In this document: positions 19,050 to 62,644 of the stretch, in pieces
How the letters are laid out: each line of letters starts with the position of its first letter
Numbering within the stretch: the stretch's first letter is position 1
Source: an uncultured Lachnospiraceae bacterium
GTDB taxonomy: Bacteria; Bacillota; Clostridia; Lachnospirales; Lachnospiraceae
Reading direction: 5' to 3'
Assembly (NCBI GenBank): GCA_964421915.1
Contig: CAYQZB010000005.1
Span: forward strand, 18,761 to 82,760
DNA length: 64,000 bases
Translations under genes and position numbers: made by a program
The notes under the pieces: model-generated
The model's database searches: none
Told to the model about the DNA's origin: nothing
What the model saw: the letters and a program-made list of their open reading frames with translations, nothing else

Positions 19050-19126
19050 TATACAAGATGTTTTAATGTTTGTAAAATATAAATGAACCAAATTATTTTT
19101 TTAGATAATCAGGAGGTGCATAAAGG

Positions 19127-21334: not shown

Positions 21335-21417
21335 GCCCCAATTTTGATGAAAACAAAGTTTTTCTAAAAACTTGGGGCGGTATTGACGAGCGTTTAGATC
21401 CGCAATTTTATTTAAAT

Positions 21418-45952: not shown

Positions 45953-46840
45953 TTACTCAACCCTCTCTTTTCCCCAGAAGAACAGCGCCACTGTGCCGGG
46001 ACCGGTATGACTGCCGATGACCGTACCGATGGAATTGATTTCCACCCGGCCGTTCAGATGGGGAAATGCTTTTTCTACCAGATCGGCAACGGCGCGCGCG
46101 TCTTCATAGCACGCGGACTGAGAGATATAGCATTTACCGGGGTAATTGACGCCTTGATCAGCGTATTCCTTCATTTTTTCCACGATAGCTGCGATGACCT
46201 TTTTCTTGGTGCGGATCTTATATCGCGGGATCAAGCGGCCGAGGTTATCCATATTCAGCAGGGGACAGATATTTAAAAGGTTTCCTACAGTGCCGGCAGT
46301 TTTTGAGACGCGACCGCCTTTGATATAGAAAGTCAGGTCGGTGGAGAAAAACCAATGATTTAATTTTAATCTGTTTTCTTCTGCATACTGGAAGACCTTA
46401 TCAATGGATTTTCCGCTGTCACGAAGATCTGCAAGCTGGTCCATCAGAAGTCCGTAGCCGGAGGATGCACCCAGAGAATCTACAACATAGATCTTCCGGT
46501 CGGGATATTCTTCCTGCAGCGTATTTTTAGCGATCATGGCGGAGTTGAGCGTGCTGGAGATTCCGGAGGACAGGGTCAGGTGCAGGATATCATGACCTTC
46601 CTCCAAAAATTTTCTGAAATATGCTTCGTATTCGTCTGCATTGACCTGTGAAGTCTTGGTATCGGCACCATCCACCATAGCCTGATAAAATTTATCAAAG
46701 GGCATGGACTGTCCGAGATCGTCAGGATACTGTACCCCGTCTAATTCATAGTGGAAACAGATATAAGAGATATCACGCGCTTCAAAATGTTCTTTGGATA
46801 GATCTGCGGTAGAACAACAGCTTAAAATAAATTTACTCAA
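45953..46840 (-). CDS. DegV family (fatty-acid-binding, FakB-like) protein
   Basis: 'ILSCCSTADLS', 'YVVDSLGASSGYGLLM', 'GTVIGSHTGPGTVALFF'. A TTG at 46840 follows GGAAAGGAAG. Confidence 0.8.
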   Translation of the reverse strand: MSKFILSCCSTADLSKEHFEARDISYICFHYELDGVQYPDDLGQSMPFDKFYQAMVDGADTKTSQVNADEYEAYFRKFLEEGHDILHLTLSSGISSTLNSAMIAKNTLQEEYPDRKIYVVDSLGASSGYGLLMDQLADLRDSGKSIDKVFQYAEENRLKLNHWFFSTDLTFYIKGGRVSKTAGTVGNLLNICPLLNMDNLGRLIPRYKIRTKKKVIAAIVEKMKEYADQGVNYPGKCYISQSACYEDARAVADLVEKAFPHLNGRVEINSIGTVIGSHTGPGTVALFFWGKERVE

Positions 46841-46972
46841 TGTTATATCTTCCTTTCCTGCCAAGATTCCATTATTGTTAGTGATATTAAGTGTAGCACA
46901 ATGCTGTCCAAATAACAAATATTATAATCAAAAAAATTACAAAAATTTTATAATTTATATCATAGTTACCTG

Positions 46973-48298
46973 TTATACTATATTCGGCACGATCCCATGT
47001 TTTATCTGTTTTCTGTAATACAGATTTACGAAGAAATAGAAAAATGTCTGAAAAGGTCTCCGTAAGACGGATCTTGTAAGGAGCGTCCGTTTCAGGATGC
47101 ATTTGATGGAATAAACATCATTGTAAAGGTCCCAGTACGCTTTTGTCAGTTCTTCCGGCGTCATATTCTTAGGGATATGTACGGCTTCGCAGGAATTATA
47201 GGAATACATATCCGTGTTATAGATCCTGTTTTGCTGTTTCATTTCTTCCCAATATTTTGTTCCGGGGATCGGTGTTAAAATATAAAATCTCGGCACTGCA
47301 ATATGATTTTTTTCGATAAACCGAGCTGTCTTCCTGATGGATTCCAAGGTGTCGCCCTCCGCGCCGATGACCATTTCCGTGGAAATATCAATACCGTGTT
47401 TTCGGATGATCCCTATCTGCTCCGGATATTTTGCAGGATCAGCCCATGCCTTACTCATTCCCAGCAGGCTTTCCTTACTGATGCTTTCCAGACCGAAGCT
47501 TAAGACGTAACAGCCGCTGGAGGCTATGATATCCAACAATTCTTCATCCCCGGCAATATCGATGGAGCATTGCGTCATCCATTTCATTTTTAACTTTTTG
47601 ATCTCAGCGCATAATCTGACGGCATAATCCCTGTCGGAAAAAATATTATCATCCAATAACAGAAACTGCCGAAATCCCAATTCTTTTATTTTTTTAATAT
47701 CCCTGATAACATCAGAAATCTCTCTTTGCAAATATTGTCCCTGATAAAGACAATAAATAGAGCAAAAGCTGCATGTTTTCGGGCATCCTCTGCCTGCCTG
47801 CACCGGCAGAAAATTTCCTATTTTCTTATCCAGCAGCATTTCATAGCTGGGCAGCGGTGTTTTCAATTCCGTTAGTTTTTTACGATATATTTTTTTTAGA
47901 TTCCCGTTTTTATAATCCTCGATCATTTCACCCCATGTTTCCTCGGAGTCGCCGATCATGACAGAGTCGCCGTATTTCAATGCTTCGTCAGGCATAAGAC
48001 TTACCATATATCCGCCCAAAACCACTGTTTTTCCCAATTTCCGGAATTTTTTAGCGATGTCGATCGTCCTCATGACGGCGTGTCCCATGCTGCTGATGCC
48101 GATCAGATCAGCGTCTGTATCAAAAGGAACATCTTCTATTGTCTCATAGCAAAGTTCAACATCAACGTCCTCCGGAGTAAGTGCCGCCAGTAACGGTAAT
48201 GCCAGTCCCACAAAATATAACCGGTTCTTTTTCACCAGATTGCCGTATTGGTCATATGGCGTAGGTTGAATCAATAAAATTTTATGAGTACTCTTCAT
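46973..48298 (-). CDS. B12-binding-domain radical SAM enzyme (class B), paralogue 4
   Basis: 'GRGCPKTCSFCS' (CxxxCxxC) after an N-terminal Rossmann-like ~150 aa ('ADLIGISS...VVLGG'). Confidence 0.8.
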   Translation of the reverse strand: MKSTHKILLIQPTPYDQYGNLVKKNRLYFVGLALPLLAALTPEDVDVELCYETIEDVPFDTDADLIGISSMGHAVMRTIDIAKKFRKLGKTVVLGGYMVSLMPDEALKYGDSVMIGDSEETWGEMIEDYKNGNLKKIYRKKLTELKTPLPSYEMLLDKKIGNFLPVQAGRGCPKTCSFCSIYCLYQGQYLQREISDVIRDIKKIKELGFRQFLLLDDNIFSDRDYAVRLCAEIKKLKMKWMTQCSIDIAGDEELLDIIASSGCYVLSFGLESISKESLLGMSKAWADPAKYPEQIGIIRKHGIDISTEMVIGAEGDTLESIRKTARFIEKNHIAVPRFYILTPIPGTKYWEEMKQQNRIYNTDMYSYNSCEAVHIPKNMTPEELTKAYWDLYNDVYSIKCILKRTLLTRSVLRRPFQTFFYFFVNLYYRKQIKHGIVPNIV

Positions 48299-48319
48299 TT
48301 GTTACCCCCTTAAGATGAA

Positions 48320-49645
48320 TCAAAACCATCCCTTTTTCTTAGTATCATACGCAGAGTGGAATAATGTCCTTACCAATACTTTTGGATAGGTCAGAACATG
48401 AAGCCAATAAAATCTCATCTGAAACATAAATGCACTCATATGTTCAGGGGGGATGGTTACATGCAGCCCGTCTCTGTTTTTAGCCTTAAAGTTGACCAAT
48501 TGATCTTTGTATTGCTCATAAGCATCCGTGCCTTTGTATGGAGTAAATATGCCAAATAACGGCCAAAGCAGATTGTTTTCTTTTATAAAATCAAAAAGTT
48601 TTCTAAAGTCCTGTTTAGTTGATTTATGGCTGATCACAAACAGACCATTGCAGACAATATTATTTTCATGGCAGTGCTTTATGGCTAAAACATTGTCATT
48701 TTTAGAAGTCTGCTTATTATATTCCTTTAACTGTTCATCATTTACAGCTTCAAGCCCTATGAGCAGATCTCTGAATCCGGCGCTGTATGCCAGAGGCAGA
48801 ATATCCGGATTTTTTGCAATAAAATCTGCTCTGGCATAAGCCATGAACTGCTTCTTAATCCCCTTTTCAATTATTTTTTCGCAAAATAATTTTACTCTCT
48901 CTTTATGAAAGAAAAAGGTATCATCTACAAACCATATTTTGTCATGATCAATTGACTCAACCTCTTCGATAACCTCATTGATATCTCTTTCGGTATATAT
49001 TCCGCTGTTCATTTTGGTACAATAACAAAAGCTGCAATGAAAGGGACAGGAAAAGGATGCCTTGCTGAGCGCATATTTCCCTTTCAAAAAAATAAAGTTC
49101 TTTTTTAATCCTCTGTAAAATTCAGTTCTGTCCGGCTTTACGATAAAACCGTTTACAGGTTTTCCCTTCTCTTTTATGATCCATTCATTATCCTTTTTAT
49201 AGCATATTCCTGATTGTTCCTCCAGTACATCTCCCTTAAGATTACTCTCCCACATATTTTTTAATGTCTGAAGTCCATTATCATGATAGACAAGATCGAT
49301 ATCATCAGTACAAAAGTCTTTGTAATTCAATTCCGCTTCCGGTCCGCCAACCATGATCGTGATATCTTTGAACTTTTTCTTTAGCTGTTCGGATCTTCCC
49401 TTTATGTAGTCGACCGTATTTGCATTTGCGTTAAAACCTATAAAATTATATCCATTCTTTTTTATTTTACGGACAATTCTGTTATATCGAAAGAACCATG
49501 AGTGTTGAAATTCATCTAATATTTCACACTCTATTTTTAAATCTCTGCACAGCCCGGCCAAATACTCCAGTCCTAATGGTTCCAAATTTGCGACAAGAGA
49601 TGAATATTTGGGTCTTATGAGTAATACTTTTAATTTCTCTCCCAT
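48320..49645 (-). CDS. B12-binding-domain radical SAM enzyme (class B), paralogue 3
   Basis: 'SFSCPFHCSFCYC'. N-terminal 'FIGFNA...TIMVGGPEA'. Confidence 0.8.
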   Translation of the reverse strand: MGEKLKVLLIRPKYSSLVANLEPLGLEYLAGLCRDLKIECEILDEFQHSWFFRYNRIVRKIKKNGYNFIGFNANANTVDYIKGRSEQLKKKFKDITIMVGGPEAELNYKDFCTDDIDLVYHDNGLQTLKNMWESNLKGDVLEEQSGICYKKDNEWIIKEKGKPVNGFIVKPDRTEFYRGLKKNFIFLKGKYALSKASFSCPFHCSFCYCTKMNSGIYTERDINEVIEEVESIDHDKIWFVDDTFFFHKERVKLFCEKIIEKGIKKQFMAYARADFIAKNPDILPLAYSAGFRDLLIGLEAVNDEQLKEYNKQTSKNDNVLAIKHCHENNIVCNGLFVISHKSTKQDFRKLFDFIKENNLLWPLFGIFTPYKGTDAYEQYKDQLVNFKAKNRDGLHVTIPPEHMSAFMFQMRFYWLHVLTYPKVLVRTLFHSAYDTKKKGWF

Positions 49646-49648
49646 AAT

Positions 49649-51010
49649 TTACTCCCCAATCAGTTTTTCCAGATATTGTATATTCACTTTAAATGCACCG
49701 AAACTTAATTTTAAAGTATCTTTTATGCCATATTTTTTGATCATATACAGGGCGCTTTTGGGATTGACCATGATTTGATAATACAGCATCATCGTATAAA
49801 AATAATATTTTCTTACGGATAGGTACGTCGGCTTTACGACAAGATGCGCCAAGTCCCATTTTTCATATTCATCTTCCCTGATGATAAAATCTTTTTTATA
49901 TTTTTCATAAAGCTCTGTTCCCCGAAGCGGCGTCAATGGTTGTAAATTGACAAATACGATACCCAGCTTTTTGATCCAGCGTTCCAATGCCTTAAAATCT
50001 TCTTTTTTCCAGTCAATTCCGGTAATAAAGGTTCCGTAACATTCAACGTCGTATTTTTTTAAGATACCGACTGCCTTTTCGTTTACGGCAACCTGCGTCA
50101 TTTTATGATAATCATTCAGTTCTTTGCTGTCGCAGGATTCCAGACCGACAATAACAGCGCGCAGACCTACTTTTTTAAACACCTTGATAACATTCTCGTT
50201 TTTTGCAATAAAATCCGCCCTGCCATAGATCAGGTATCTTTTTTTGATATGATTCTGCTTTAATAATTGGCAGAATTTAAGGATGCGGGTTTTATTCACA
50301 AGAAAGTCATCGTCAACAATATAGATCTCCGTTTCCTTAATAGTCTTTAATTCCGCAATGATATCTTCCAGATCTCTGGTAAAATAATTACCGTCAGTGA
50401 TCTGCCTGCAAAAACAAAAGGAACACTGATAAGGGCAGCCGAAAGAAGTTTTGATAAGGCTGCAGTTGCGGTGAAACATATAATAATATTTGGAGCGGTA
50501 GCGGTCCACCTTTCTCCTGTCTGGAAATGCATAAGGAAAGCAGGTTTCCTTATGGGGCTTTTCTCCATTTTTCCGGTAGATGCAGGGAAGATCAGTGGCA
50601 GCAGTTTTCTGTTCCAGATGGTCAAGGATTTCCGTAATTGTTTTTAATCCGTTGGCACGGATGATATAATCAATGTTTTCCGATTCAAAATCTTCCGGGT
50701 TTACTTCCGCATGTACCCCACCGACAAGCACTTGAATAGCGGGATCATAAGCCTTGATTTCCTCGGCATATTTTTTAATAACATTTACATGGGCGATATA
50801 TCCGGTGATGCCCACTGCCTGCGGATGATATTTTTGGATAAAATAGGTAAGATCCCTTTTTTCAAGAATCATATCGATGATGATGGACTTATGTCCATGT
50901 GTCCTGATGTTGGATGCGATATATTCCAATTCCAGCGGCTCGCAGATCATCAGGTTCTGCAGTCCTATCGTGTCTTTGTGCGGTTTTGGACGTATCAATA
51001 AAATGTTCAT
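49649..51010 (-). CDS. B12-binding-domain radical SAM enzyme (class B), paralogue 2
   Basis: 'SFGCPYQCSFCFC'. N-terminal 'AVGITG...QVLVGGVHA'. Confidence 0.8.
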   Translation of the reverse strand: MNILLIRPKPHKDTIGLQNLMICEPLELEYIASNIRTHGHKSIIIDMILEKRDLTYFIQKYHPQAVGITGYIAHVNVIKKYAEEIKAYDPAIQVLVGGVHAEVNPEDFESENIDYIIRANGLKTITEILDHLEQKTAATDLPCIYRKNGEKPHKETCFPYAFPDRRKVDRYRSKYYYMFHRNCSLIKTSFGCPYQCSFCFCRQITDGNYFTRDLEDIIAELKTIKETEIYIVDDDFLVNKTRILKFCQLLKQNHIKKRYLIYGRADFIAKNENVIKVFKKVGLRAVIVGLESCDSKELNDYHKMTQVAVNEKAVGILKKYDVECYGTFITGIDWKKEDFKALERWIKKLGIVFVNLQPLTPLRGTELYEKYKKDFIIREDEYEKWDLAHLVVKPTYLSVRKYYFYTMMLYYQIMVNPKSALYMIKKYGIKDTLKLSFGAFKVNIQYLEKLIGE

Positions 51011-51077
51011 GATTAGTCTCCGTGCAGCAGTTGTTTTTTATAACTCTGCTTTTATCAATAAATTATGGCGCAGGTTT

Positions 51078-51698
51078 TTACTTCTCCAGATGAAATAACG
51101 CGATCGTGGGCATATAGAATTTTTCCCGTATGACCTTTACTTCCTGTAGCTTTAATCCGGCATTATGAAAAAGGACTTTCATTTCCTTTACTGACAGATA
51201 TCTTGCTTTGCTTGTAGTTGCCTTCAAAAAGAAATTGATCATCAGGTCTTTGAAGCTGTTTGTGGACGAATTGACGATGATGACCGTTGCCCCAGGATTG
51301 CATAAATCCGCAAATTTACAAAGAGTCTCCTCTTTATTCGGAAAATAAGGAAATGCATGGGTACAAATTATGATATCATATTTCTCCGTATTCTTGAAAT
51401 CTTCCACAGGGCATAATTGAAACAGGATATTCTGTCCTTTCACGCTTTCCTTTGCAAGGCCGATCATATTATGGGCAACGTCGATTCCCAGATAATTGAT
51501 CTGCGGGTATTGTTCGGAAATTTCCTGGATCAATTGTCCCGTCCCGCAGCCGGCTTCAAATAGTTTTAATGATGCATCAGCCTGTAGTTTGGGCAGTACA
51601 ATCTTTAAGACCTCCCGTCTGGTGGGACCCAAAGAATATTTCTGTACCCATAGACGGTTATATTTGTGAGCAAGATTTTCCCATTTTTGATACTTCAT
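51078..51698 (-). CDS. Class I SAM-dependent methyltransferase
   Basis: 'LFEAGCGTGQLIQEI' motif I. 206 aa. Confidence 0.8.
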   Translation of the reverse strand: MKYQKWENLAHKYNRLWVQKYSLGPTRREVLKIVLPKLQADASLKLFEAGCGTGQLIQEISEQYPQINYLGIDVAHNMIGLAKESVKGQNILFQLCPVEDFKNTEKYDIIICTHAFPYFPNKEETLCKFADLCNPGATVIIVNSSTNSFKDLMINFFLKATTSKARYLSVKEMKVLFHNAGLKLQEVKVIREKFYMPTIALFHLEK

Positions 51699-51859
51699 CT
51701 TTATCCTCCATGTTATGATTGTTTTTCAACCTGTCTCCATGTCAATTTATATCTTATTTTTTCATATTTAATGAGTATCCTTTTCAATAACCTGCAAACT
51801 TTGGGCCGCAGGCACAAATTTGCAATTGAAAAAATAAGATAATATCTTATTTTTTCAAT
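51699..51859 (-). repeat. Variant copy of the modular hairpin repeat (H1, H2-like hairpin, RBS end; long H3 hairpin absent), minus orientation
   Basis: H1 at 51825-51859 (ATTGAAAAAATAAGAT..ATCTTATTTTTTCAAT) overlaps the rSAM stop codon. H2-like hairpin at 51793-51824 (TGCAAACTTTG..CAAATTTGCA). On the minus strand the element ends 'ACATGGAGGATAAAGATG', like copy 3 'ACATGGAGGATAAATATG'. Confidence 0.65.
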
Positions 51860-53211
51860 TTGAGTCCTTTGACTACTTCCACCCAATATTCCAGAGAAGC
51901 GTTGATTGCCGCACCCAGATAGCGGAACGGCAGGACTCTTTTTCTCAGGGTCAGCATAGCCTGTTTTACGTATAACTTGTAAAATTCAAAATAAAATGTA
52001 GTCCTGCTCATCTTGGAAGGGTTAATGGTCAAATGAACAAAATCCCATTTTCTATAGTCGTTCGTAACGATCCTGTCTTTGTATTTTTCATACTGTGCGG
52101 TACCCGGCATAGGGGTAAGGATAGAGATCGTTGATAAGTAAAGTTCATACTTTTTGATAAATTCATAAAGTTTTTTAAAATAACTTTTTTCTGCGTCGAT
52201 ATCTATCATAAAAAGACCGATACAGGTAATATTGCATTCCTTTAATATGCGGATCGCACTTAAGATGATATCAACGCTGCTGTCCTTTTCGTATTTTTTT
52301 AAGACCTCATCGTCGATCACTTCCAATCCGACAGCGCACATGGAGACACCTATTTCCGATAGTTTTTTCATATATTCCGGATGCCCGGCAATAAAATCGG
52401 CGCGGAAATACAAGAAAAACTTCTTTTTTATCTTCTCTTTTTTTATTAAATCAATAAAACGGTCTAATTTTTTTACATCAACATAAAACGTATCGTCAAC
52501 GATCCAGATATTGTCGCAATTGATCGTTTTGATTTCTTCCACAACATGTTCCGGTTCCCTGCAAAGATATTGCCCACCGTTTAAAAGCGTGGAAAAGCAG
52601 TAATTACAATGATGGGGACAGCTATAGCTTGCTTTTAGGATCGCCAGTGGTTTTGCCGTCACGTATTTATATCTTTTCAGGTTCCGGTACAGATGCTCCC
52701 TGTCGGGAAAAGGCAGATCCGCGATACGGAAGATCTCCCGATCATTTTTATGCCATACATTCCCGTCATAATAACAGATTCCCTTGATATTCCGGTAATC
52801 CGCAGGCTGTTCGGATATGATCGCTTCAAAGGGCTGGAATCCGCCGCTGTGGATGATCACGTCGATCCCTTCAAACTGAAAATCCTCCGGCATCACTTCC
52901 GCATGGGGACCTCCGACAACGGTAAGGATATCAGGATTGTAATTTTTTATGGTCTTAACATATTTTTTAATGGGGTATATATGCACAAAATTGGCGGTCA
53001 TTGCCACAATATCCGGCTGGAATTGACGCAGCAGGCGCTTTAACGACGTATGCTTAATCGTAAGGTCGCAGATCCTGCTTTCCACTCCCTGTCTTTTGCA
53101 GATGGCGGTCATATATTCCAGTTCCAGCGGTTCGGTGACGATCAGGGATAATTTGGTAAATACATTTTTAAAACTTGGCTTGATCAATAATACTTTCATT
53201 AAATTCTCCAT
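51847..53211 (-). CDS. B12-binding-domain radical SAM enzyme (class B), paralogue 1
   Basis: 'SYSCPHHCNYCF'. N-terminal 'IVAMTA...TVVGGPHA'. Confidence 0.8.
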   Translation of the reverse strand: MENLMKVLLIKPSFKNVFTKLSLIVTEPLELEYMTAICKRQGVESRICDLTIKHTSLKRLLRQFQPDIVAMTANFVHIYPIKKYVKTIKNYNPDILTVVGGPHAEVMPEDFQFEGIDVIIHSGGFQPFEAIISEQPADYRNIKGICYYDGNVWHKNDREIFRIADLPFPDREHLYRNLKRYKYVTAKPLAILKASYSCPHHCNYCFSTLLNGGQYLCREPEHVVEEIKTINCDNIWIVDDTFYVDVKKLDRFIDLIKKEKIKKKFFLYFRADFIAGHPEYMKKLSEIGVSMCAVGLEVIDDEVLKKYEKDSSVDIILSAIRILKECNITCIGLFMIDIDAEKSYFKKLYEFIKKYELYLSTISILTPMPGTAQYEKYKDRIVTNDYRKWDFVHLTINPSKMSRTTFYFEFYKLYVKQAMLTLRKRVLPFRYLGAAINASLEYWVEVVKGLKLKK

Positions 53212-53273
53212 TAAGCAGCTCTTTGCAAAAATCCTTCATGCCACCTTTGGCGGCTCAAATAGAAACTATCTTC

Positions 53274-54269
53274 TTACATCAGCGCACGGTAATTCGGAAA
53301 ATCATATTTGTATTCCAGGAGCCCTTTTCCGAGCCTTGCTGCGGCATTTAGTATTCTGTTTGAGTGGTGCGCGTAAAAATATTTCTTTTCCAGTCTTGCC
53401 CCGAATCTCAGCTTTGTGTCTTCCGAAGTCTGTCCGAAGTCGATCGCGCCGCACCCGTGCGATATAGCATAACATATGATGTGATACAGCATATAATAAT
53501 ATAGATCCGCGGTGTGATAATTATAGTCCATGCCGCACAGCATAAAAATAAGTTTTTCTCGGTTTTGTTTTAAAAGCACAAAGCCTACCGGATCGGTATC
53601 CTGAAAAAATACCAGCCTGACGGCGTCGATTTTGTCAAAAAAGCCCTTTTCCAGTTTCTCCAGTTTATAATTGGACTTTTCGTAGGTATTCAGATATAAT
53701 CTGTAAATATCAACGCTGCCGTCATTAATTTCCTTTACGGTCAGGTCTTTGCATGCAGCTGTGGCCTTTCTGATCCTTCTTCTATAGGGGCTTCTTAAAT
53801 GGGTCATATATTCCTCTATGGAATCCAGATGTCTGTCCAGAATACATGTGGGAAGCGTTTCCCCGATCGTCATCTGTCTTACGGATGGGCAGCTGCTGAT
53901 ATTCCCCACGTTTAATACAAGTTTGGCGCCTTTGATTTTTTTGATATAATCAAACATCATTTCCTCATCATTGGTAAGGTAACCGCAGCAGCTTAAGGAA
54001 CAGGGGTAGCCGATCACCTTTAGCTTCAGGAAGCATTTCAGCTTTCCGAAAGTAAAAATGTTCATTTTATTTTCATAGATCGTAAAAAAAGCATAGGCGT
54101 CATTTTTCTGAATAAATACATATTTTTGACGCAGCTTGTTTTCTTCTTTTAACAGATTCAACAGCCCGCTTTCAAAGGGATATTCCAGAATATCTTTGAC
54201 AAGACCGCTGATCTCGTCAAAATGATCGCTGATATAAACGGTTTTTTCCTGATCAGATATCTTTTTCAT
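53274..54269 (-). CDS. GNAT-fold acyltransferase of the FemAB/CelD-like (Acetyltransf_6) type
   Basis: 'VGFVLLKQNREKLIFMLCGMDYN...GCGAIDFGQTSEDTKLRFGARLE' resembles the BioF2-like/CelD acetyltransferase pattern. Assignment from memory. Confidence 0.55.
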   Translation of the reverse strand: MKKISDQEKTVYISDHFDEISGLVKDILEYPFESGLLNLLKEENKLRQKYVFIQKNDAYAFFTIYENKMNIFTFGKLKCFLKLKVIGYPCSLSCCGYLTNDEEMMFDYIKKIKGAKLVLNVGNISSCPSVRQMTIGETLPTCILDRHLDSIEEYMTHLRSPYRRRIRKATAACKDLTVKEINDGSVDIYRLYLNTYEKSNYKLEKLEKGFFDKIDAVRLVFFQDTDPVGFVLLKQNREKLIFMLCGMDYNYHTADLYYYMLYHIICYAISHGCGAIDFGQTSEDTKLRFGARLEKKYFYAHHSNRILNAAARLGKGLLEYKYDFPNYRALM

Positions 54270-55335
54270 AAGTTACATAGTCCTTATATCTGCTGTCGCA
54301 TATTGCCTGACAAAAGCTGTTGGAGTCCTTATTTTCGTCTAAGATCCAGGAGGTTTCCGCTCTGGTGATATGGTAATGCTTCAAGTTCTTAAAGATCTGG
54401 TTGATCAGTGCTAATGCCAGTCCTGATCGCCTGTTTTCGTCCAAAATCCCGTATTCCATGATCTTAGCCGTTTTTATCCGGCTGCCAAAAAAAATATTTT
54501 TGATAAAATGCTTTGCGCCGAAGATATCGCCCTTTTTACCCAGCTCGTTAAAGTCGGGATACCACATGATAAATCCCACCGGCTGATCTCCCTGAAATGC
54601 AAAAATCAGGGAATCCTCCTTCATAAACAGGAATAATTCTTTTAACATTTCAATATCTTCCTGATAATTCCGTTGATAGTAATATCTGTGGCTGGCAAAG
54701 GTTTTGTTATTCAGATTGGTATATATTTTTGCATCCTCAATAAATCTTTTTTTGTCAAAATTACGGAAAGTATATGTTTTGTCCAATTTTTCAAATAGTT
54801 TTTGAAAGTTATCCAGTCGTTGATCAATTGCTCGGATCACATAGGTATTCATTTTGATCTCCGAAAAATCCATGCCCTTAAAATAATCATGATAATAGCT
54901 TGGATTGGCGGCTGCGGAAAAGGAATTGATTGTATTGTAATGGGAGCTTAAGAAACCCAGCCCGTAATTTACGTGACCGTTCAGCCCTACTACAATTTTT
55001 TTGCAGCCTTTATCTTTTCCTATTTTGATTGCTCTATCCACCAGCAGCTTCACAGCTTCGGACTGTTCCGGCAGACTTTCAAAAAAACATAGTTGGATAT
55101 AATCCGGCAGATCCTTGGCAAAAACCACGATCCCCTGACTGACGATCCTGCCGTCATGTATGACATTGATCGGATAGATGTCCTTGCCGTTGATAAAGCT
55201 TGTCTGTTTCCGGAACACCTCCCGGATCATAAAGTAACTGTTATCTATAAAGTTATTGTTGCTTTGATATAAGTCTTTCCGAAATCTTAAAAACTGTTTT
55301 TCGTCCTTTTTATGCGTAATTGCCGCTAATTCCAT
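54253..55335 (-). CDS. Two-domain GNAT-like acyltransferase (putative)
   Basis: C-terminal 'VGFIMWYPDFN...YGILDENRRSGLALALINQIFKNLK...RAETSWILDENKDSN' resembles the GNAT acyl-CoA-binding core. Weak assignment. Confidence 0.45.
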   Translation of the reverse strand: MELAAITHKKDEKQFLRFRKDLYQSNNNFIDNSYFMIREVFRKQTSFINGKDIYPINVIHDGRIVSQGIVVFAKDLPDYIQLCFFESLPEQSEAVKLLVDRAIKIGKDKGCKKIVVGLNGHVNYGLGFLSSHYNTINSFSAAANPSYYHDYFKGMDFSEIKMNTYVIRAIDQRLDNFQKLFEKLDKTYTFRNFDKKRFIEDAKIYTNLNNKTFASHRYYYQRNYQEDIEMLKELFLFMKEDSLIFAFQGDQPVGFIMWYPDFNELGKKGDIFGAKHFIKNIFFGSRIKTAKIMEYGILDENRRSGLALALINQIFKNLKHYHITRAETSWILDENKDSNSFCQAICDSRYKDYVTYEKDI

Positions 55336-55416
55336 TTTCTTTTGCGTCCTTGTCTAAATATCGTTTTTCGGAGTGAAATTTCAAGCAATTGCCTGAAATA
55401 CCTTTTTACACGGCGC

Positions 55417-55674
55417 TCAGCTCTTGGCATTTTCAATATATTCTATCAGATCGCCCACCGTATTGATAGAATGGTATTTTTCCTCATCTATCTCAATATG
55501 AAAAGTATCTTCAATAAGAGCTATCAAATTGATAAAGTCAAAGGAAGTAAGTCCGAGATCGGTTTTTATGTTCGTCTCCGTGCTGATATCGTCAATATGA
55601 TAATTCTCTTTTAATAAAGTCTTCAGTTGGCTTAACATAGCGTCTCCTTGAGCATAAATCTTTTTATTTTTCAT
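55417..55674 (-). CDS. Acyl carrier protein
   Basis: 'DLGLTSFDFINLIALIED' phosphopantetheine-attachment type motif. 4-nt ATGA overlap with the ligase stop. Confidence 0.8.
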   Translation of the reverse strand: MKNKKIYAQGDAMLSQLKTLLKENYHIDDISTETNIKTDLGLTSFDFINLIALIEDTFHIEIDEEKYHSINTVGDLIEYIENAKS

Positions 55675-57353
55675 CTTTTTAATAAAGTGTTTTCTGTCGG
55701 TGCGGTATATCTGCTTCTGATGATTTTTTGGGAACTTGTTTTTTCAAATTCTTCGGAAACGATCTCATAATCATCAATACGCATATATGGGGGAAGCGTG
55801 CGGTTGATTGCTTCGATATCCTTTTTTAATTGATCGATTTTGCCTTCATTGCAGGCCTTGTCCTGATTATCAGCGCTGTTGTTATTGCCTTCATTGCCTT
55901 CAATGACGGCAATAAGTATTTTGGCGATAATGATCTCTGCGGAGTTTCTGACGTCTGCCATCACCAGACATTCCTTGACATAGGGAAGCCGCAGCAGTTT
56001 TTTTTCTACGGCTTCCGGCGAAAAGTTTTTTCCGTTTTTTAATATGATCAGATTCTTTTTACGTCCTGTGACATACAGAATGTCACCTTCCAGATACCCG
56101 ATATCTCCGGTTTTGTAATATCCGTCCACGAAAGAACGCTCGGTTTCCTCTTTGTCGTTATAATAACCGGACATAACATTCCAGCCTTTTACTAAGATTT
56201 CTCCGTCATCCGCAATCTTAACTTTTGTTCCCTGGATAACAGCTCCTGCGCTGCCCCGGATATTATTCCTGTCCCGGTTGACGCTGATCAGCGGCGCACA
56301 TTCTGTCATGCCGTAGCCGTTTAATACGGTAATTCCGATTTCCTCAAATCTGTCAACATAGACGGGATCCAAAAATGCACCCCCGCAGACGATGATCCGA
56401 AGCCTTTTATTGATCAGATTTTGAAAAAGAAGGTGTCTGATATCAAGATGGCATTTCCTTAATCCGTTGCTTATTTTGATCAGTCCGTAAAGCAGCTTTT
56501 CTTTCTTTCGGCGTCTTGCTTCGCGGATGATATTTTTATAGATCCCCTCCAGCATAACAGGCACAACGCCGATATAATACGGGTTGTAATACTTAAAATC
56601 CTTTGCAATATCCTTTAACGCCATATTAATGCATACCGTATCCCCGTTATAAAGCGGTGATAAAAGGTCGGGGTGGAATCCGTACATATGGCTCATCGGT
56701 AAAAGCTGCAGCATGGGGGATTCCAGATGCATGTATAATAAAGGCGCCCGCAGATTGGTAACGATATTACGTTGGGATAGCATGGCTCCCCTGACTGCGC
56801 CGGTAGTTCCGGAAGTAAATGCCAGAACGGAAAATTTATGGCTGTCCGTATGCTCCGTATCCCTAAAAAATGAGTCGGGAGCGTAATGCTCCTGCGTGAT
56901 CGTCTGATAGTCGGCATCTATATTGATCAGTCTTAGTGTATCTTTGCCCGATAGAGCATCCAGTTTTTCTTTGGTTTTATCTGTATAAAATAACACTTTA
57001 ATGTCAAACTTTTCAATCAAGGAAGCCAGACCGTCAGCGGTAAGCTCCCGGTCAATCGGAGCGATGACATTCTGAAATACGCCGGCAAGATAGATCGTGA
57101 TATACTCATACCGATTCTCGGATAGTATGCCTATGTTGCTGTTTTGGATATCATTCTTTTTATAAAAATGATAAAGATCAGAAATCTGCCGGATCAAGGC
57201 GTCATAGGTAATACTTGTTTCCTTCCCGTTTTTTCTGAATCTTATAGCCGTTCTTTCAGAATAATTGTCATATATCCCTTTAAGCAGCTCGTGGAAATTA
57301 TCATATTTTACAACGTCGTAATCGCCGGGCGGCATATGTTTTGTTTTTTTCAT
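55671..57353 (-). CDS. AMP-forming acyl ligase (FadD/FAAL-like), probable acyl-ACP loading enzyme
   Basis: 'FTSGTTGAVRGAMLSQRN', 'NGYGMTECAP', 'YYKTGDIGYL', 'GRKKNLIILKNGKNFSP'. Confidence 0.85.
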   Translation of the reverse strand: MKKTKHMPPGDYDVVKYDNFHELLKGIYDNYSERTAIRFRKNGKETSITYDALIRQISDLYHFYKKNDIQNSNIGILSENRYEYITIYLAGVFQNVIAPIDRELTADGLASLIEKFDIKVLFYTDKTKEKLDALSGKDTLRLINIDADYQTITQEHYAPDSFFRDTEHTDSHKFSVLAFTSGTTGAVRGAMLSQRNIVTNLRAPLLYMHLESPMLQLLPMSHMYGFHPDLLSPLYNGDTVCINMALKDIAKDFKYYNPYYIGVVPVMLEGIYKNIIREARRRKKEKLLYGLIKISNGLRKCHLDIRHLLFQNLINKRLRIIVCGGAFLDPVYVDRFEEIGITVLNGYGMTECAPLISVNRDRNNIRGSAGAVIQGTKVKIADDGEILVKGWNVMSGYYNDKEETERSFVDGYYKTGDIGYLEGDILYVTGRKKNLIILKNGKNFSPEAVEKKLLRLPYVKECLVMADVRNSAEIIIAKILIAVIEGNEGNNNSADNQDKACNEGKIDQLKKDIEAINRTLPPYMRIDDYEIVSEEFEKTSSQKIIRSRYTAPTENTLLKR

Positions 57354-57522
57354 TTTTTTATTTTACCATAACTACAGTGTATTTAATAGAAAAAAATTAT
57401 TTTTAGAAATCGGGATAAAGAGAAATATAACAGATATAGTGGCAGGAGATATGTCTATATACAAAATATGGAAATCCATTTTCCGTATTTATGAAATAAT
57501 TGTGAATACCTTGATTTGGTAT

Positions 57523-57551
57523 TTGACAGCGGTATTCTGTAGTCATAAAAT
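57523..57551 (+). promoter_or_regulatory. Sigma-70-type promoter for the RND operon (TTGACA-17 nt-TAAAAT)
   Basis: TTGACA at 57523-57528 and TAAAAT at 57546-57551. Followed by the inverted repeat GATATAAT..ATTATATC at ~57575-57596. Confidence 0.5.
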
Positions 57552-57682
57552 AGATATGTTATTGTGAGATATAATTGAGATATTATATCCCAAAAGGTTA
57601 CTGAATATAAGATGTACTAATGCAGGATCGGATGTATACGCTGATATTGGATAAAATTTGGATGAAAGGTATGGATGGTGAT

Positions 57683-59350
57683 ATGAGAAAAAGATGGATA
57701 GCAGATATGATGGTAGTATGCATGATCGTATGTGCTTTTGCATTTTCAGGCTGCGGCGCGGCGGATACGGCAGCTTCGCTGATATCCGGAGAGACGGATA
57801 CGGCGCTTCTTGAAGTGGATACGGTGAATCCGCTGATTACGGATATTTCTGTAGAAGGTGAATATGTAGGCATTTTGGAGTATGAAGATCAGGTATCTGT
57901 GGTTCCGTTGCTTAATGGAGAAGTAACGGCAACTTATTTTGAAGAGGGTGATTACGTTGAGGCGGGTGATCTGTTATTCACCATTGATGACGAGGCATAT
58001 CAGCTCCAGCTTAGGAATGCGCAGATCGCGTACCAGCAGGCGCAGTCGGGAATTGATTCCCAGTTAGGCCAGCTGCAGATGGGCAGGGATTCTGCCGTCA
58101 ATACGGTATCTTCAGCACAGGAGGGGATCAGCCAGATTCAGGATTCCTACGATTTTTTTAACAGTCAGCTTGCGGATTTAGATGCGTCGAAAGCTGATCT
58201 TGCAGAAGACAGGGCGGAAATGAAGGAGGATCTTCTGGAGGTCAGGGATCAGATTTCAGACCTTGAAAAAAGCATAGCGAGTATGCAGAGTGAATATAAC
58301 GATATGTATGCCGCATATGTAGCTGCAGAGACCCAGTATAAGATACAGGAGTCACAAAAAAATTCCATGGAAGGATCGATATCGGAAGGCTCAATACCGG
58401 AAGGTGTTATGCCTGACAATATGAATGTGAATATAATTACGGAGAGTGATTTGATCAAAATGGATACCGCATGCGATCAGCTCTCCAATGCATTAAGTGC
58501 GGCAAGATCTATGCTGTCCAGTCTGCAAAGTGCGGAGAAACAGCTGGATAGTGCGATCGCCCAGTATGACAGCAGTATGGACCAGATAGATTCCTCCAAG
58601 GACAGTATCATATATCAGAGGGATAACCTTGATTATAATATGGAACAGGCGTTACGGGGGGAACAGCTGGCACAGGCGCAGCTGGATTATTATGATAATT
58701 ATACGATACCTTCCGCGCAGATGTCTGCTACGACGACACTGCAGCAGGCGCAGCTGGGGATCGATTCGGCGCGGCTTCAGTTAGGCTACACACAGGTGAC
58801 GGCGCCGGTATCCGGCACGATCCTGTCTAAAAATGTAGAGGAGCTTGGAATCGCGCAGATGGGATATCCGGCATATGTGATCATCAGTGATGAAGGAACG
58901 ATAGCGTCCTTTGGCGTACCGGAAAGCACGTATCGTATGCTGTCGCCGGGGCAGGAAGTCAGAGTGGAAAGAAACGGCGTGGTCTATGACGGCAGTATTG
59001 TAGAGATTCCCCTGCAGGTCAATCCGCAGACGGGATTATTTACGATCAAGGCTGCTTTGAAGGGGGATACAGATCAGCTGATCATGGGCACCTCCGTAAA
59101 GGTTACGCTTGCGGTAAGGCATACGGAACGCGCATTGACGATACCTATCGACTGTGTCTATTATGAAGGCGGCGAGGCTTATACCTATGTGCTGGAGGGC
59201 AATATCGTCCGGAAGGTATCCATAGAGACAGGTCTTTATGATGGTGTGAATATGCAGATACTGAGCGGCATTACAGAGGATATGCCGATCATTACGACAT
59301 GGTCGTCTGATCTGAGAGATGGACTGGAAGTTAAGGTAAGCGGCGAATAA
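57683..59350 (+). CDS. RND efflux periplasmic adaptor (HlyD/MFP family) lipoprotein
   Basis: Lipobox 'AFSGCGA'. Long coiled-coil. 'YTQVTAPVSGTILS'. The start is chosen at the ATG preceding the signal peptide. Confidence 0.8.
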   Translation: MRKRWIADMMVVCMIVCAFAFSGCGAADTAASLISGETDTALLEVDTVNPLITDISVEGEYVGILEYEDQVSVVPLLNGEVTATYFEEGDYVEAGDLLFTIDDEAYQLQLRNAQIAYQQAQSGIDSQLGQLQMGRDSAVNTVSSAQEGISQIQDSYDFFNSQLADLDASKADLAEDRAEMKEDLLEVRDQISDLEKSIASMQSEYNDMYAAYVAAETQYKIQESQKNSMEGSISEGSIPEGVMPDNMNVNIITESDLIKMDTACDQLSNALSAARSMLSSLQSAEKQLDSAIAQYDSSMDQIDSSKDSIIYQRDNLDYNMEQALRGEQLAQAQLDYYDNYTIPSAQMSATTTLQQAQLGIDSARLQLGYTQVTAPVSGTILSKNVEELGIAQMGYPAYVIISDEGTIASFGVPESTYRMLSPGQEVRVERNGVVYDGSIVEIPLQVNPQTGLFTIKAALKGDTDQLIMGTSVKVTLAVRHTERALTIPIDCVYYEGGEAYTYVLEGNIVRKVSIETGLYDGVNMQILSGITEDMPIITTWSSDLRDGLEVKVSGE

Positions 59351-59466
59351 ATCACCGCTTTCTTAGAGGCTCCGGCGGATACGCACGGATCTGCAAAGAA
59401 ACATGCTGCATTACGGAATAAATTGCTTACGCTTTGACGCTCAGGGTGTGGCAGAGATGAGGAATC

Positions 59467-62400
59467 ATGCACAATTTTACTAAATTATGTTTAAAAAAAC
59501 CGGTATCCACGGTTATCATTATTATGGCATTGGTCATTTTCGGCATTGCTTCGGTTCTGGGTATGAATATGCAGCTGACGCCGGATATGCAGCTGCCGAT
59601 GATCATTGCCTTTACAGTGTATCCACAGGCAGGACCGGAGGAAGTGGATCGTCTGGTGTCACAGGAGCTGGAGCAGGTGGGCGCGACCATTGAAGGTTTG
59701 AAAAGCGTAACCTCCCAGTCCATGGAAAATATTTCCTATATGATCTATTCCTTTGAATACGGAACGGACATAGACGAGGCATATACGGATCTTCAGCAGG
59801 AGATCAATACGATCAAGAGCAGTCTGCCGGATGAATGCAGCGATCCGATTTTGATTGTCATGGATATCAATGCCGCGCAGTCTATGACATTGTCGATTAC
59901 TTCCGACATGGGGGCGGATGTCCGTTCCTTTGTAAATGATTCTTTGGAGCCTGAGATCGCGTCGATTCCAAACGTAGCAAGGACGGCAGTAACCGGCGGT
60001 CAGGAGGACTATATCCGGGTACAGGTCGTTCCGGAGCTTCTGTCGGAATACGGATTGGATATGGCGACGCTTGTTACATATATCACATCTTCAGATTTTT
60101 CAATTCCCGCAGGTACGGTGGATATGGGATCCCAGACATTAAACGTCAATACAAAGGTTGCGTATGAGAGCATCTATGACTTAGAGGATATCCCGATCCT
60201 GACAGCAAGAGGCAGCACGATCCATTTAGGAGATGTTGCAGTGATTTCTTTTGCCAGGAAGGATGCGGATTCCATCAGCCGCTATAATGGCGAGGATAAT
60301 GTAACGCTGGATATCACAAAGAAACAGGGTACGAATGCGGTAGAGCTTTCCCGTGATGTGAAGAAGGTCATAGAGAAGATGGCGGTGGATTATCCGAAAA
60401 TGCAGGTCAATATCATCTATGACAGTAGCGACTCCATCATCAGTTCCCTGACCAGCGTAGGGGAGACGCTTGCGCTGGGCGTTGTGTTTTCTATGGCGGT
60501 ATTGTTTATCTTTTTCGGTGATTTTAAGGCAAGTCTGATCGTCGGCAGTTCCATGCCGGTATCCCTTCTGGTAACGCTGCTTTTGATGGGTGCATGCGGG
60601 TTTTCTTTGAATGTCGTTACGCTGGGAGCTATGGTTATCGGCATCGGTATGATGGTGGATAACTCTATCGTTGTATTAGAGATGTGTTTTCAAAAGAGGG
60701 ATCAGGGGTATTCCTTTGAAGAAGCCGCGTTGAGTGCGGTCAAGACCGTGGCGATGTCTATTACGGCATCTACGATCACGACGATCGTTGTGTATCTTCC
60801 TCTGGCATTGATGAAGGGGCTTTCGGGACAGATCTTCGGACAGCTGGGATTTACGATCATCTTTTCGCTGACGGCATCCCTGATCGCTTCGGTAACGCTT
60901 GTTCCGCTTTGCTTTGCGAAATATCATCCCATTGAGAAAAAGAAATTTATCATTGCCCGCGGTGTAAAATGGTTTTCTGAGAAATACGGTAAGTTTTTGA
61001 GTAAGGTGTTGAATAAAAAACTGATTGCGGTTCTTGTGACAGCAGCGATCGTGGCGTTGACTGCCTTTGGCATCACACAGCTACATACCCAGCTGATGGC
61101 GCAGTCGGATGAGGGAACGATCGCCATGTCGGTTAATGTAAGGCCGGGATTGGGACTGGAAAGCAAGGATGCAGTATTGCGTGAACTGGAAGCCTTTGTG
61201 GCTGCAGATCCGGATGTGGCCAATTATAATGTCAGCGCTTCGGATGGCACGTCAACAATCAGCGTGACGGCATATCTGAGGAAGGACAGATCGCGGGCTA
61301 CGATAGAGATCGTGGATGAATGGAATCTTGCACTGGCGGATATGAAAGACGCGGAGGTATTGTGTACTTCCACCAGCACCATGTCTATGGGCTCGATGGG
61401 AACGGATTCCAAGGAGATCGATATCCGGTGCGCCGGTCTGGAACAGTTAAAGGTGGCTTCCGTGCAGATAGCGCAGGCGATTCAGGATGTGCCGGGCGTA
61501 GTCAATGTCAGTACGGATTTTGAAGATTCCTCCAATAAGGCGGAGATCGTTATCGATCCGGTAAAAGCCACGGGAGCAGGTATCCTTCCGGCGCAGGCGG
61601 CATCAGCGCTTTATGCTGCCAAAAACGGTACGGAAGCCATGGATCTTGCAATCAATGAAAAAGATTATACGGTGATCGTGGAATATCCGAAGGATCGTTA
61701 TGATACGATTGCCGATCTGATGAATATGCAGCTGACAAGCAACTTTGGTACAGGTATCATCCTCTCGGATATTGCTGAAGTCAGATATACTGATAGTCCC
61801 CAGACGATTAAGCGTGCAGATAATTATTATCAGGCGGCGATCGTGGCAAGCCTGTCTGATGAATTAAAATATGAAGCCATGGATCAGATCGACGAGATCG
61901 TAGCCGGTATTAAACTGCCAAGCGGCGTATCATATGCGGAGGATCAATATACGGAGATGATGACGGAAGAATTTATGGCGATCTTTCAGGCAATTTTAGT
62001 TGCGCTATGGCTGGTATTCATGGTGATGACCATGCAGTTTGAATCAGCAAGGTACTCCGGAATGATCATGTTCTGTATCCCGTTCTCATTGATCGGTTCG
62101 GTGGCTATGCTCTGGATCACCGGTATTCCGCTGGATATGACTTCCATGATGGGATTGTTGATGCTGGAAGGTATCGTGGTAAATAACGGTATTCTGATGG
62201 TCGATACCACGAATCAGAATCTGGAAGAGGGCATGCCGGTGAATGAGGCGCTTGTGGAAGCAGGTAAGTCAAGGCTTCGCCCGATCCTTATGACGACGTT
62301 GACGACGATCCTTTCCATGGTGCCGATGGCGCTTGGCATTGGCTCCAACGGCCAGCTGATGCAGGGTATGGCGATGGTTATCGTCGGCGGTCTGGTTGCT

Positions 62401-62499: not shown

Positions 62500-62640
62500 A
62501 TTGAAAAATAAGATTGATATCTTATTTTTCAATCTGCAATTTGAGTCAGAGCCTCAAATTGCTTTGATCGCAGATGAGAAACCGCCTGCGCGGATTTCTC
62601 ATCGCGTGTCATCACAGCAAGCTGCTCTGACATGGAGGAT
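62500..62640 (+). repeat. Modular hairpin repeat/leader, copy 3 (most complete: H1, H2, H3, H4, RBS)
   Basis: H1 at 62500-62533 has a perfect 15-bp stem. H2 is GCAATTTGAG..CTCAAATTGC. H3 is GATGAGAAACCGC..GCGGATTTCTCATC. H4 is TGTCA..CAGC-AA-GCTG..TGACA. GGAGGA then precedes the ATG at 62645. Starts one base after the RND stop codon. Confidence 0.85.
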
Positions 62641-62644
62641 AAAT

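Follow-up and report, generated by a model that had tools for sequence, protein, structure and literature searches.

What might a bacterial operon produce when it places several B12-binding radical S-adenosylmethionine (SAM) proteins next to an acid-activating ligase, a carrier protein, and a pair of acyltransferases? This question is raised by a stretch of 64,000 nucleotides (nt) from an uncultured Lachnospiraceae bacterium (contig CAYQZB010000005.1 of assembly GCA_964421915.1, positions 18,761 to 82,760), which is referred to here as the window. Within the window, ten genes lie in the same direction on the minus strand between positions 45953 and 57353. In the direction of transcription they encode a ligase (LIG), an acyl carrier protein (ACP), two GNAT-type transferases (G1 and G2), the radical SAM protein rA, a methyltransferase (MT), three further radical SAM proteins (rB, rC, and rD), and a DegV-family protein. 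Our preferred answer, held at a little under an even chance, is that the operon is one version of an uncharacterized, modular small-molecule cassette that gives an N-acyl amide bearing added C-methyl groups, for instance a lipo-amino acid or an acylated aminoacyl amine. The proposal starts from protein families, co-conservation, and gene fusions that are observed directly, adds folds taken from AlphaFold2 (AF2) models compared with Foldseek, and derives every catalytic step from family or fold.

The extent of the unit is indicated by the genes that remain together across related loci. One genome per species was scanned, G1 relatives were found in 110 genomes, and 80 loci were returned. The proteins of the window and of five reference loci were mapped onto these 80 loci, and about 90 related loci were compared overall, including some from isolates of Lachnospiraceae, Acetoanaerobium, Alloiococcus, Lawsonibacter, and Desulfopila. 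Fifty-eight loci are complete, with a cluster that stops short of both ends of the available DNA. G1 is present in all 58, accompanied by rB in 56, G2 in 54, and rD in 51. The ligase and ACP always occur together (37 loci), and the other genes are present in varying numbers: rC in 36 loci, rE in 30, rF in 28, MT in 21, rA in 17, and rG in 10. Each locus carries between two and five radical SAM genes. The constant core is G1-G2-rB-rD, and the other genes come and go around it: the commonest layout, LIG-ACP-G1-G2-rB-rC-rE-rF-rD, occurs in 22 loci, and the smallest, in locus L076, is G1-G2-rB-rD. Radical SAM genes and both transferases are found without ligase or ACP in 21 of the 58 complete loci, among them all of the distant ones. 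A sequence-only reading of the window had proposed a biosynthetic operon of ten genes; co-conservation holds for the core, and the constant unit consists of four genes rather than ten.

Some types of gene that often accompany biosynthetic clusters were looked for near the cassette. No exporter, regulator, or phosphopantetheinyl transferase is common there beyond single lineages. A search for conserved open reading frames (ORFs) of 18-130 amino acids (aa) within 2.5 kilobases (kb) of the screened clusters found only shadow ORFs inside neighbouring genes, with none seen in the window. This small-ORF screen and the Pfam searches agree with the earlier view that the operon has no precursor-peptide ORF and no polyketide synthase or non-ribosomal peptide synthetase modules. 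In an Acetatifactor-type variant without ligase or ACP (L004, L005, and L016; 15731-16186), a NUDIX hydrolase gene lies between rB and rD, and the downstream genes are an AAA-ATPase/PDDEXK_9 gene and jetA.

Within the window, the nine genes from LIG to rD form a real operon, and the gene for DegV is its neighbour (Table 1). The ORF listing confirms the ten co-directional genes at the coordinates given in the sequence-only reading, along with the 17-nt overlap of G1 and G2 (54253-54269) and the 3-nt gap between rB and rC (49646-49648). The enzyme families named in that reading were also recovered in hidden Markov model (HMM) searches: all ten proteins score above the Pfam gathering threshold, and the sequence motifs that it quoted are all present in the translations. 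None of the nine proteins other than DegV reaches a named NCBIfam equivalog. The block contains no convincing internal terminator, its 48 promoter-like sites, compared with 36 expected, carry no information, and an Rfam scan of the entire window detected no riboswitch or other RNA.

Two details of the earlier layout require revision. An ATGA overlap between the ligase and ACP genes (55671-55674) probably appears only through the choice of the longest ORF. An internal ATG at 55638 has an AAGGAG Shine-Dalgarno sequence 5 nt ahead of it, and the resulting 73-aa protein matches its relatives in length, so that ACP probably starts there and not at 55674. The DegV protein (Pfam DegV, 207 bits; TIGR00762, 225 bits) had been counted in the operon. 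Its most likely start is the TTG at 46840, 132 nt after rD and preceded by an AT-rich gap and a Shine-Dalgarno sequence of its own. It adjoins the cassette only in L011, L012, and L014, which belong to the window's own species group, have about 90% nucleotide identity to the window, and share its flanks, including HlyD/RND genes. The HlyD and RND genes likewise keep their synteny with the operon in this group only (L011, L013, and L014). Since the linkage of DegV and the HlyD/RND genes is limited to this group, they are neighbours of the cassette and not members.

Table 1. Positions in the window of the operon genes and the genes that flank them.
Gene	Product and status	Positions	Strand	Basis
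LIG	ANL-superfamily acid-carrier protein ligase, OaaA-like, 560 aa; accessory arm	55671-57353	minus	Pfam; similarity to OaaA
ACP	Discrete acyl carrier protein, 73 aa (probable start)	55417-55638	minus	PP-binding; DLGLTSFD; longest ORF runs to 55674
G1	Tandem-GNAT N-acyltransferase (predicted), 360 aa; core	54253-55335	minus	Acetyltransf_1; AF2 and Foldseek
G2	FemX/MprF/Sbb17-like double-GNAT transferase (predicted), 331 aa; core	53274-54269	minus	Acetyltransf_6; AF2 and Foldseek
rA	B12-binding radical SAM protein, 454 aa; accessory, travels with MT	51847-53211	minus	B12-binding and Radical_SAM
MT	Class I SAM-dependent methyltransferase, 206 aa; accessory	51078-51698	minus	Methyltransf_23, _12, _31
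rB	B12-binding radical SAM protein, 453 aa; core	49649-51010	minus	B12-binding and Radical_SAM
rC	B12-binding radical SAM protein, 441 aa; accessory	48320-49645	minus	Radical_SAM and B12-binding
rD	Radical SAM protein of a separate subfamily (PhpK/QCMT/AprD4-like), 441 aa; core, most conserved	46973-48298	minus	Radical_SAM and B12-binding
DegV	DegV-family protein; co-directional neighbour, non-member	45953-46840	minus	Pfam DegV; TIGR00762
HlyD	HlyD-family adaptor gene	57620-59350	divergent from operon (within 57354-62499)	Syntenic only in the window's own species group
RND	AcrB-type RND pump gene	59467-62499	divergent from operon	Syntenic only in the window's own species group

The two transferases bear on the type of bond that might be formed. 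Comparison of G1 and G2 with the PDB by sequence and by profile gave no usable match to any solved protein, and confident AF2 models were built from 35-sequence alignments, with predicted local distance difference test (pLDDT) scores of 89.9 for G1 and 89.4 for G2. G1 matches Pfam Acetyltransf_1 (28 bits) over residues 227-343, and the top Foldseek matches of its model are tandem GNATs: 5kf1, a clostridial glucosamine N-acetyltransferase (E 1e-14), MAB_4324, the clavulanate-pathway protein CBG, and the mycothiol synthase MshD (target-normalized TM-score 0.72); the PDB entries matched are 5kf1, 7q3a, 2wpw, and 1ozp. Across the family alignment, R302 and G305 hardly vary, and the sequence in the window is R302-R-S-G305-L-A, so that G1 retains, in its C-terminal GNAT domain, the R-x-x-G-x-A loop that binds coenzyme A (CoA) or pantetheine through the pantetheine pyrophosphate. 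G2 matches Acetyltransf_6 (PF13480; 34 bits against a cut-off of 22), and its sole NCBIfam match is pepcterm_femAB (TIGR03019), at 24 bits against a cut-off of 260. Its best structural neighbours are the aminoacyl-tRNA-dependent peptide synthases Sbb17 and Sba18 (E 5e-11, TM-score 0.59-0.67), followed by MprF and FemX. An alignment of G1 with G2 by hhalign showed no real homology outside a single GNAT strand.

The G1 family is large and poorly annotated. A profile search of 1.84 billion representative proteins found 142 members (50%-identity clusters) at E ≤ 1e-30, and a protein collection held 220 relatives, of which those with a named source are from Lachnospiraceae. They are annotated only as 'hypothetical protein' or 'GNAT family N-acetyltransferase', and the same applies to G2. 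Natural gene fusions are found within these families. In one relative, G1 and G2 form a single 718-aa protein, the gene for which overlaps a LysA-like pyridoxal phosphate (PLP) decarboxylase gene upstream (by 4 nt) and an rB-like gene downstream, the latter being the sole radical SAM gene adjoining the fusion. The decarboxylase matches TIGR03099 (93 bits), and its overlap with the fusion fits an amine acceptor. In another relative, a ferredoxin-like N-terminal domain with two cysteine clusters is fused to G1 and is followed by G2-MT-rB-rD. These fusions indicate that G1 and G2 act together and with the radical SAM enzymes. A separate hint of polyamines, from an arginase-family gene neighbouring the cassette in L080, was discarded when this neighbour proved to be HutG, above its own cut-off.

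The radical SAM proteins have the domains expected of class B enzymes, in which an N-terminal B12-binding domain precedes the radical SAM core. The B12-binding domain (PF02310, cut-off 32.1) was detected in all four, at 61.1 bits in rA, 60.9 in rB, 43.2 in rC, and a marginal 35.0 in rD, as had been predicted from the letters alone; Radical_SAM (PF04055, cut-off 29.5) scores 51, 51, 57, and 57 bits, respectively. The CxxxCxxC motif is at residue 198 in rA (CPKTCSFC), 192 in rB (CPFHCSFC), 200 in rC (CPYQCSFC), and 172 in rD (CPHHCNYC). Cysteine maps of the four proteins contain no SPASM-like or twitch C-terminal clusters, in agreement with the sequence-only reading. The top model for rA and rB is the hopanoid C-3 methylase HpnR (182 and 194 bits against a cut-off of 650), and that for rD is the PhpK family (93 bits against 600). 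None of the four reaches the equivalog cut-offs of HpnR, BchE, PhpK, HpnJ, ladderane-type enzymes, BzaD, or the glutamine C-methyltransferase QCMT.

The description of these proteins as four paralogues is not supported, as rD belongs to a different and far more conserved subfamily. Proteins rA, rB, and rC are 30-36% identical to each other and resemble HpnR and BchE, whereas rD aligns with them over only part of its length, at about 25% identity, and resembles PhpK-type enzymes, QCMT, and AprD4. Its best PDB matches are 9ccb (QCMT, E 3.7e-12) and AprD4, which is also a PDB relative of rB. AprD4 has a B12-binding domain and, to our knowledge, uses no cobalamin. In Alloiococcus, Lawsonibacter, Desulfopila, and Acetoanaerobium, rD is 61-69% identical to the window protein, compared with 32-37% for G1, and rB is 49-63% identical in distant phyla. 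Each rD relative for which the contig was examined (P0262, 85% identical) lies within the same cassette. At about 30-38% identity, rD-like proteins occur in other pathways, such as a YcaO cluster of the thiazole/oxazole-modified microcin (TOMM) type on a Clostridium plasmid (38% identical) and a Citrobacter plasmid cluster. The Citrobacter and TOMM clusters show that enzymes of the rD type are used in several kinds of pathway, and they do not fix the substrate of rD in the cassette.

The Citrobacter cluster (L095) is located at 51417-63512 of the mobilizable IncF plasmid NZ_CP134684.1 of Citrobacter portucalensis, is unannotated, and combines five rD-like radical SAM genes (about 30% identical) with genes for a GH3-type adenylase, an N-acetyltransferase of 341 aa, a phosphatase of the PAP2 type, and a fatty-acid desaturase. 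In appearance it is another uncharacterized multi-radical-SAM lipid cluster.

The methyltransferase matches Methyltransf_23, _12, and _31, with the glycine-rich GxGxG motif of the sequence-only reading present as GCGTG; its top NCBIfam model is BioC, at 64 bits against a cut-off of 185. Orthologues of rA are confined to loci that carry MT (Fisher p 5.6e-6 for co-occurrence). In loci with rG (L008 and L009, 7311-9441; also L018, L028, L031, and L066), three genes are inserted among the radical SAM genes, encoding an ATPase of the ABC type, a GTPase similar to CobW/HypB, and a protein of 215 aa with an N-terminus like the Fe-S motif of the acetyl-CoA synthase corrinoid protein. This insert may be a cobalamin-loading or reactivation module, and the presence of such a GTPase and a corrinoid-FeS-type motif among radical SAM genes fits real use of cobalamin.

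The loading arm provides the best indication of the acid that might be used. The ligase matches Pfam AMP-binding (171 bits) and AMP-binding_C_3, and its translation contains the adenylation motifs TSGTTG, GYGMTE, YKTGD, and SSQKIIR. It falls below every NCBIfam cut-off (the top model, long-chain-fatty-acid-CoA ligase, scores 173 bits against 476), and its matches to solved ANL enzymes are weak and partial. A much closer relative is OaaA, the sequence of which was taken from Table S5 of PMC13142362: the two proteins are 32.6% identical over 518 aa, which is nearly full length (E 7e-72). Similarly, ACP is 37% identical to OaaACP (E 8e-11). It matches Pfam PP-binding (PF00550; 43 bits against a cut-off of 20.8), with the attachment serine within DLGLTSFD, and at 57 bits it falls short of the NCBIfam AcpP cut-offs (66). 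OaaA is a stand-alone adenylating enzyme from a fatty-acid-amide pathway of Coprococcus eutactus that loads oleate and other fatty acids onto OaaACP for amide formation (PMC13310621). The likeness of both proteins to this pair is the best evidence that the loaded acid could be a fatty acid, and is suggestive rather than conclusive.

Taken in order, these parts outline a possible pathway. The OaaA-like ligase would adenylate a fatty or other carboxylic acid and load the dedicated ACP; G1 would then move the acyl group to an amine, and G2 would form a second amide or ester bond, most likely with an aminoacyl-tRNA as donor, as its fold suggests, although the assignment of donors to G1 and G2 is tentative. 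Unactivated carbons of the scaffold would be methylated or otherwise reworked by rB and rD, with optional contributions from rA and rC, and the class I methyltransferase would act on a heteroatom. The varying set of radical SAM enzymes would lead to different decorations in different species. A fatty-acyl amide is a plausible product because the ligase and ACP are closest to OaaA and OaaACP and are followed by two transferases predicted to form amides. To this extent, the 'lipo-amino compound' of the sequence-only reading is retained. A bolder version is possible, though we consider it doubtful: an undescribed type of pathway, carried by Lachnospiraceae of the gut and rumen and by scattered other anaerobes, in which a coupled or fused double-GNAT pair, one member of it tRNA-dependent, assembles an acyl-aminoacyl-amine scaffold on which a combinatorial set of two to five cobalamin-dependent radical SAM enzymes alkylate unactivated carbons, giving a family of heavily C-methylated lipo-amides that are possible host- or microbe-directed signals, comparable to clostridial fatty-acid amides.

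Several observations weigh against the proposed C-methylated N-acyl amide. An identity of 33% to OaaA does not fix specificity for fatty acids, and the 21 loci without ligase or ACP show that the acyl donor can differ. The use of tRNA by G2 is suggested by Foldseek matches with TM-scores of about 0.55-0.67 and has no counterpart at the sequence level. The B12-binding domain of rD is marginal, rA-rD reach no named equivalog, and class B enzymes also perform cyclization, ring contraction, and dehydration. As no exporter is conserved, the product may remain in the cell or its membrane.

Other readings of the same genes have to be set against this proposal. According to the sequence-only reading, an ACP-tethered chain is modified repeatedly by the radical SAM enzymes, through iterative C-methylation or C-C coupling, before being transferred to give an unusual branched lipid. 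The position of the ligase and ACP at the head of the operon is consistent with such a scheme, as are the HpnR matches of rA and rB, a score of 80 bits for rD against a 'lipid biosynthesis B12/radical SAM' model, and the PAP2 and fatty-acid desaturase genes beside rD-like enzymes on the Citrobacter plasmid. The HpnR scores, however, are far under the cut-off, and it is G1 and G2, not ACP, that are fused to or overlap with the radical SAM genes. Moreover, radical SAM genes are kept in the 21 complete loci that have neither ligase nor ACP, and therefore this carrier is not something that the radical SAM enzymes require; we consider this scheme unlikely and do not retain that part of the earlier claim. 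A similarly low probability is given to modification of the cell envelope in place of synthesis of a free metabolite, in which, for example, the head group of a membrane lipid or a peptidoglycan precursor would be aminoacylated and acylated in the manner of MprF or FemX and subsequently methylated by radical chemistry. The structural neighbours of G2 do include FemX and the aminoacyl-phosphatidylglycerol synthase domains of MprF, the best match of G1 acts on glucosamine, and no exporter is conserved; in one lineage (L091-L093) the cassette lies among the housekeeping genes lepB, ylqF, and rnhB. Against this, no membrane segment is predicted in any of the core proteins, its surroundings contain no conserved gene for a glycosyltransferase, a flippase, or the cell wall, and the patchy, island-like distribution with its variable gene set is typical of accessory metabolism.

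Lipidated and C-methylated products are also made by tailoring of peptides synthesized on ribosomes and modified after translation (RiPPs), with selidamide- and proteusin-type pathways as precedents, and the peptide could in principle be encoded elsewhere in the genome. The rD-like protein of the YcaO/TOMM cluster, and the methylation of a protein glutamine by the best PDB relative of rD (9ccb), point in this direction. The absence of a conserved small ORF within 2.5 kb of the screened clusters and of any RRE (leader-peptide-binding) domain, protease, exporter, or SPASM domain makes such a peptide product very unlikely. Lower still is the probability that the cassette belongs to an anti-phage defence island, in which it would make or alter a nucleotide-derived signal or toxin. 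Genes for TIR_2 proteins, AbiEii, JetA, a PIN toxin, and an NADase flank the cassette in some relatives, and the NUDIX gene lies inside the cassette in one locus type. These flanks differ in every lineage, however, and none of these genes adjoins the operon in the window. PADLOC, applied to the ten proteins and to the accessory proteins of relatives, returned nothing specific: a weak generic radical SAM match (PDC-M51A, 48 bits) and a generic methyltransferase.

The genomic context suggests that the cassette is mobile, because its flanks differ by lineage, it is found inserted between lepB and ylqF, and its identity to L006 is mosaic (91% over rB-rD and 80% over LIG-G2). The same gene order is found in contigs with quite different surroundings. 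The insertion is in L091-L093 (2071-12873), between the housekeeping genes lepB and ylqF/rnhB, with the lepB stop codon overlapping the start of the ligase gene; this is a widely sampled lineage of Lachnospiraceae (92 collection blocks). Base composition had been cited as a sign of horizontal acquisition. The block (GC 0.394) is indeed more AT-rich than its immediate neighbours (0.46-0.48), but its composition equals the window mean (0.399) and thus carries no information on transfer.

Other features were recorded around the cassette. In a Lachnospiraceae sub-lineage (L001, 4018-8114; L002, L003, L021, L026, L027, L029, L032, and L040), two or three large proteins with TIR_2 domains (about 610-730 aa) are encoded directly upstream of the ligase and on its strand, the last ending 33 nt before it. 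About five membrane segments are predicted in each of the two that were checked (628 and 727 aa). Downstream in this sub-lineage are genes for a lipoprotein-like protein of 479 aa and a HAD hydrolase, without PADLOC match. Elsewhere in the window, the stretch of lowest GC (0.29-0.34; 18507-24260) is a restriction-modification island with genes for an AAA_33 kinase-like protein, a 735-aa fusion of HSDR_N and N6_Mtase, a type I S subunit, and a 489-aa protein without Pfam match. A 281-aa ORF at 41347-42192 encodes both a transposase-like nuclease domain of the PD-(D/E)XK type, scoring under the Pfam cut-off, and a helix-turn-helix of sigma-70 region 4.

The cassette has potential significance for both enzymology and the biology of the gut. 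Class B radical SAM enzymes catalyze some of the hardest C-H functionalizations known, and few of them have assigned substrates; two conserved and up to three optional enzymes, tied to a defined pair of transferases, thus provide a tractable entry to their chemistry. The cassette occurs widely among Lachnospiraceae of the gut and rumen, being present in at least 110 species-level genomes and abundant in assemblies from rumen, mouse, and human gut. Because its loading arm is related to a pathway for fatty-acid amides active on G-protein-coupled receptors, the product could be a new class of microbiome metabolite, and the cassette ties the availability of cobalamin in the gut to secondary metabolism. 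Cultured carriers are available for genetic work, namely Lachnospiraceae bacterium G41 and AB2028, Acetoanaerobium noterae DSL2, Lawsonibacter faecis NSJ-52, Alloiococcus sp. CFN-8, and Desulfopila sp. IMCC35008.

All parts of the cassette come from known superfamilies, and the core G1-G2-rB-rD is without a characterized counterpart in the literature searched. The gene combination was not mentioned in literature searches or in 2026 reviews of lipid-modifying and B12-dependent radical SAM enzymes, and the original impression that it matched no characterized pathway stands. Its components can be compared with known systems. In mycothiol biosynthesis, MshC joins an amino acid to an amine and the new amino group is then N-acylated by the tandem GNAT MshD. 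MshD is among the best structural matches of G1, and the likeness is one of analogy only: mycothiol is made by other organisms, and the cassette has no MshC-like ligase or sugar-inositol genes.

A gene set associated with exosortase A and PEP-CTERM proteins contains an AMP-forming ligase, an ACP, a FemAB-like protein, and a PLP decarboxylase, according to TIGRFAMs descriptions. A ligase, an ACP, and a FemAB-like protein are likewise brought together in the cassette, which is an unusual mix; G2 matches the FemAB model of that set (TIGR03019), and the decarboxylase of the fusion locus matches its TIGR03099. These scores are far below the cut-offs, the cassette has no exosortase or PEP-CTERM context, and the exosortase set, itself of unknown function, lacks radical SAM enzymes. 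The double-GNAT fold of G2 is shared with the FemABX/MprF superfamily, which includes FemX, the synthase domain of MprF, and Sbb17 and Sba18 of streptothricin-type pathways. Unlike these proteins, G2 is partnered with a second tandem GNAT, to which it is fused in one relative; it has no sequence-level match to solved members and is far under the FemAB model.

With class B enzymes such as HpnR, BchE, PhpK, QCMT/MgmA, CysS, and TokK, rA-rD share the N-terminal B12-binding domain followed by the CxxxCxxC core. The use of several class B enzymes in one pathway has precedents in the biosynthesis of thienamycin, bottromycin, and polytheonamide. The cassette differs from the known systems in that no equivalog cut-off is reached and two to five of these enzymes occur per locus, and the 2026 reviews that were consulted do not describe class B enzymes paired with a couple of transferases like G1 and G2.

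The fatty-acid-amide pathway of C. eutactus (OaaA, OaaACP, and OaaC; PMC13310621) provides a further comparison. It has neither radical SAM enzymes nor a methyltransferase, both of which are found in the cassette, and the ligase/ACP arm is optional in the cassette (37 of 58 loci), unlike in that pathway. Its amide-forming step uses the condensation domain of OaaC; a BLASTP search with OaaC of the translated genes from the window operon and from five related loci gave no match, and Pfam found no condensation domain in the window operon, where two double-GNAT transferases stand in its place. What the two systems have in common, in gut Clostridia, is a free-standing ANL ligase and a dedicated small ACP, followed by an enzyme that forms, or in the cassette is predicted to form, an amide.

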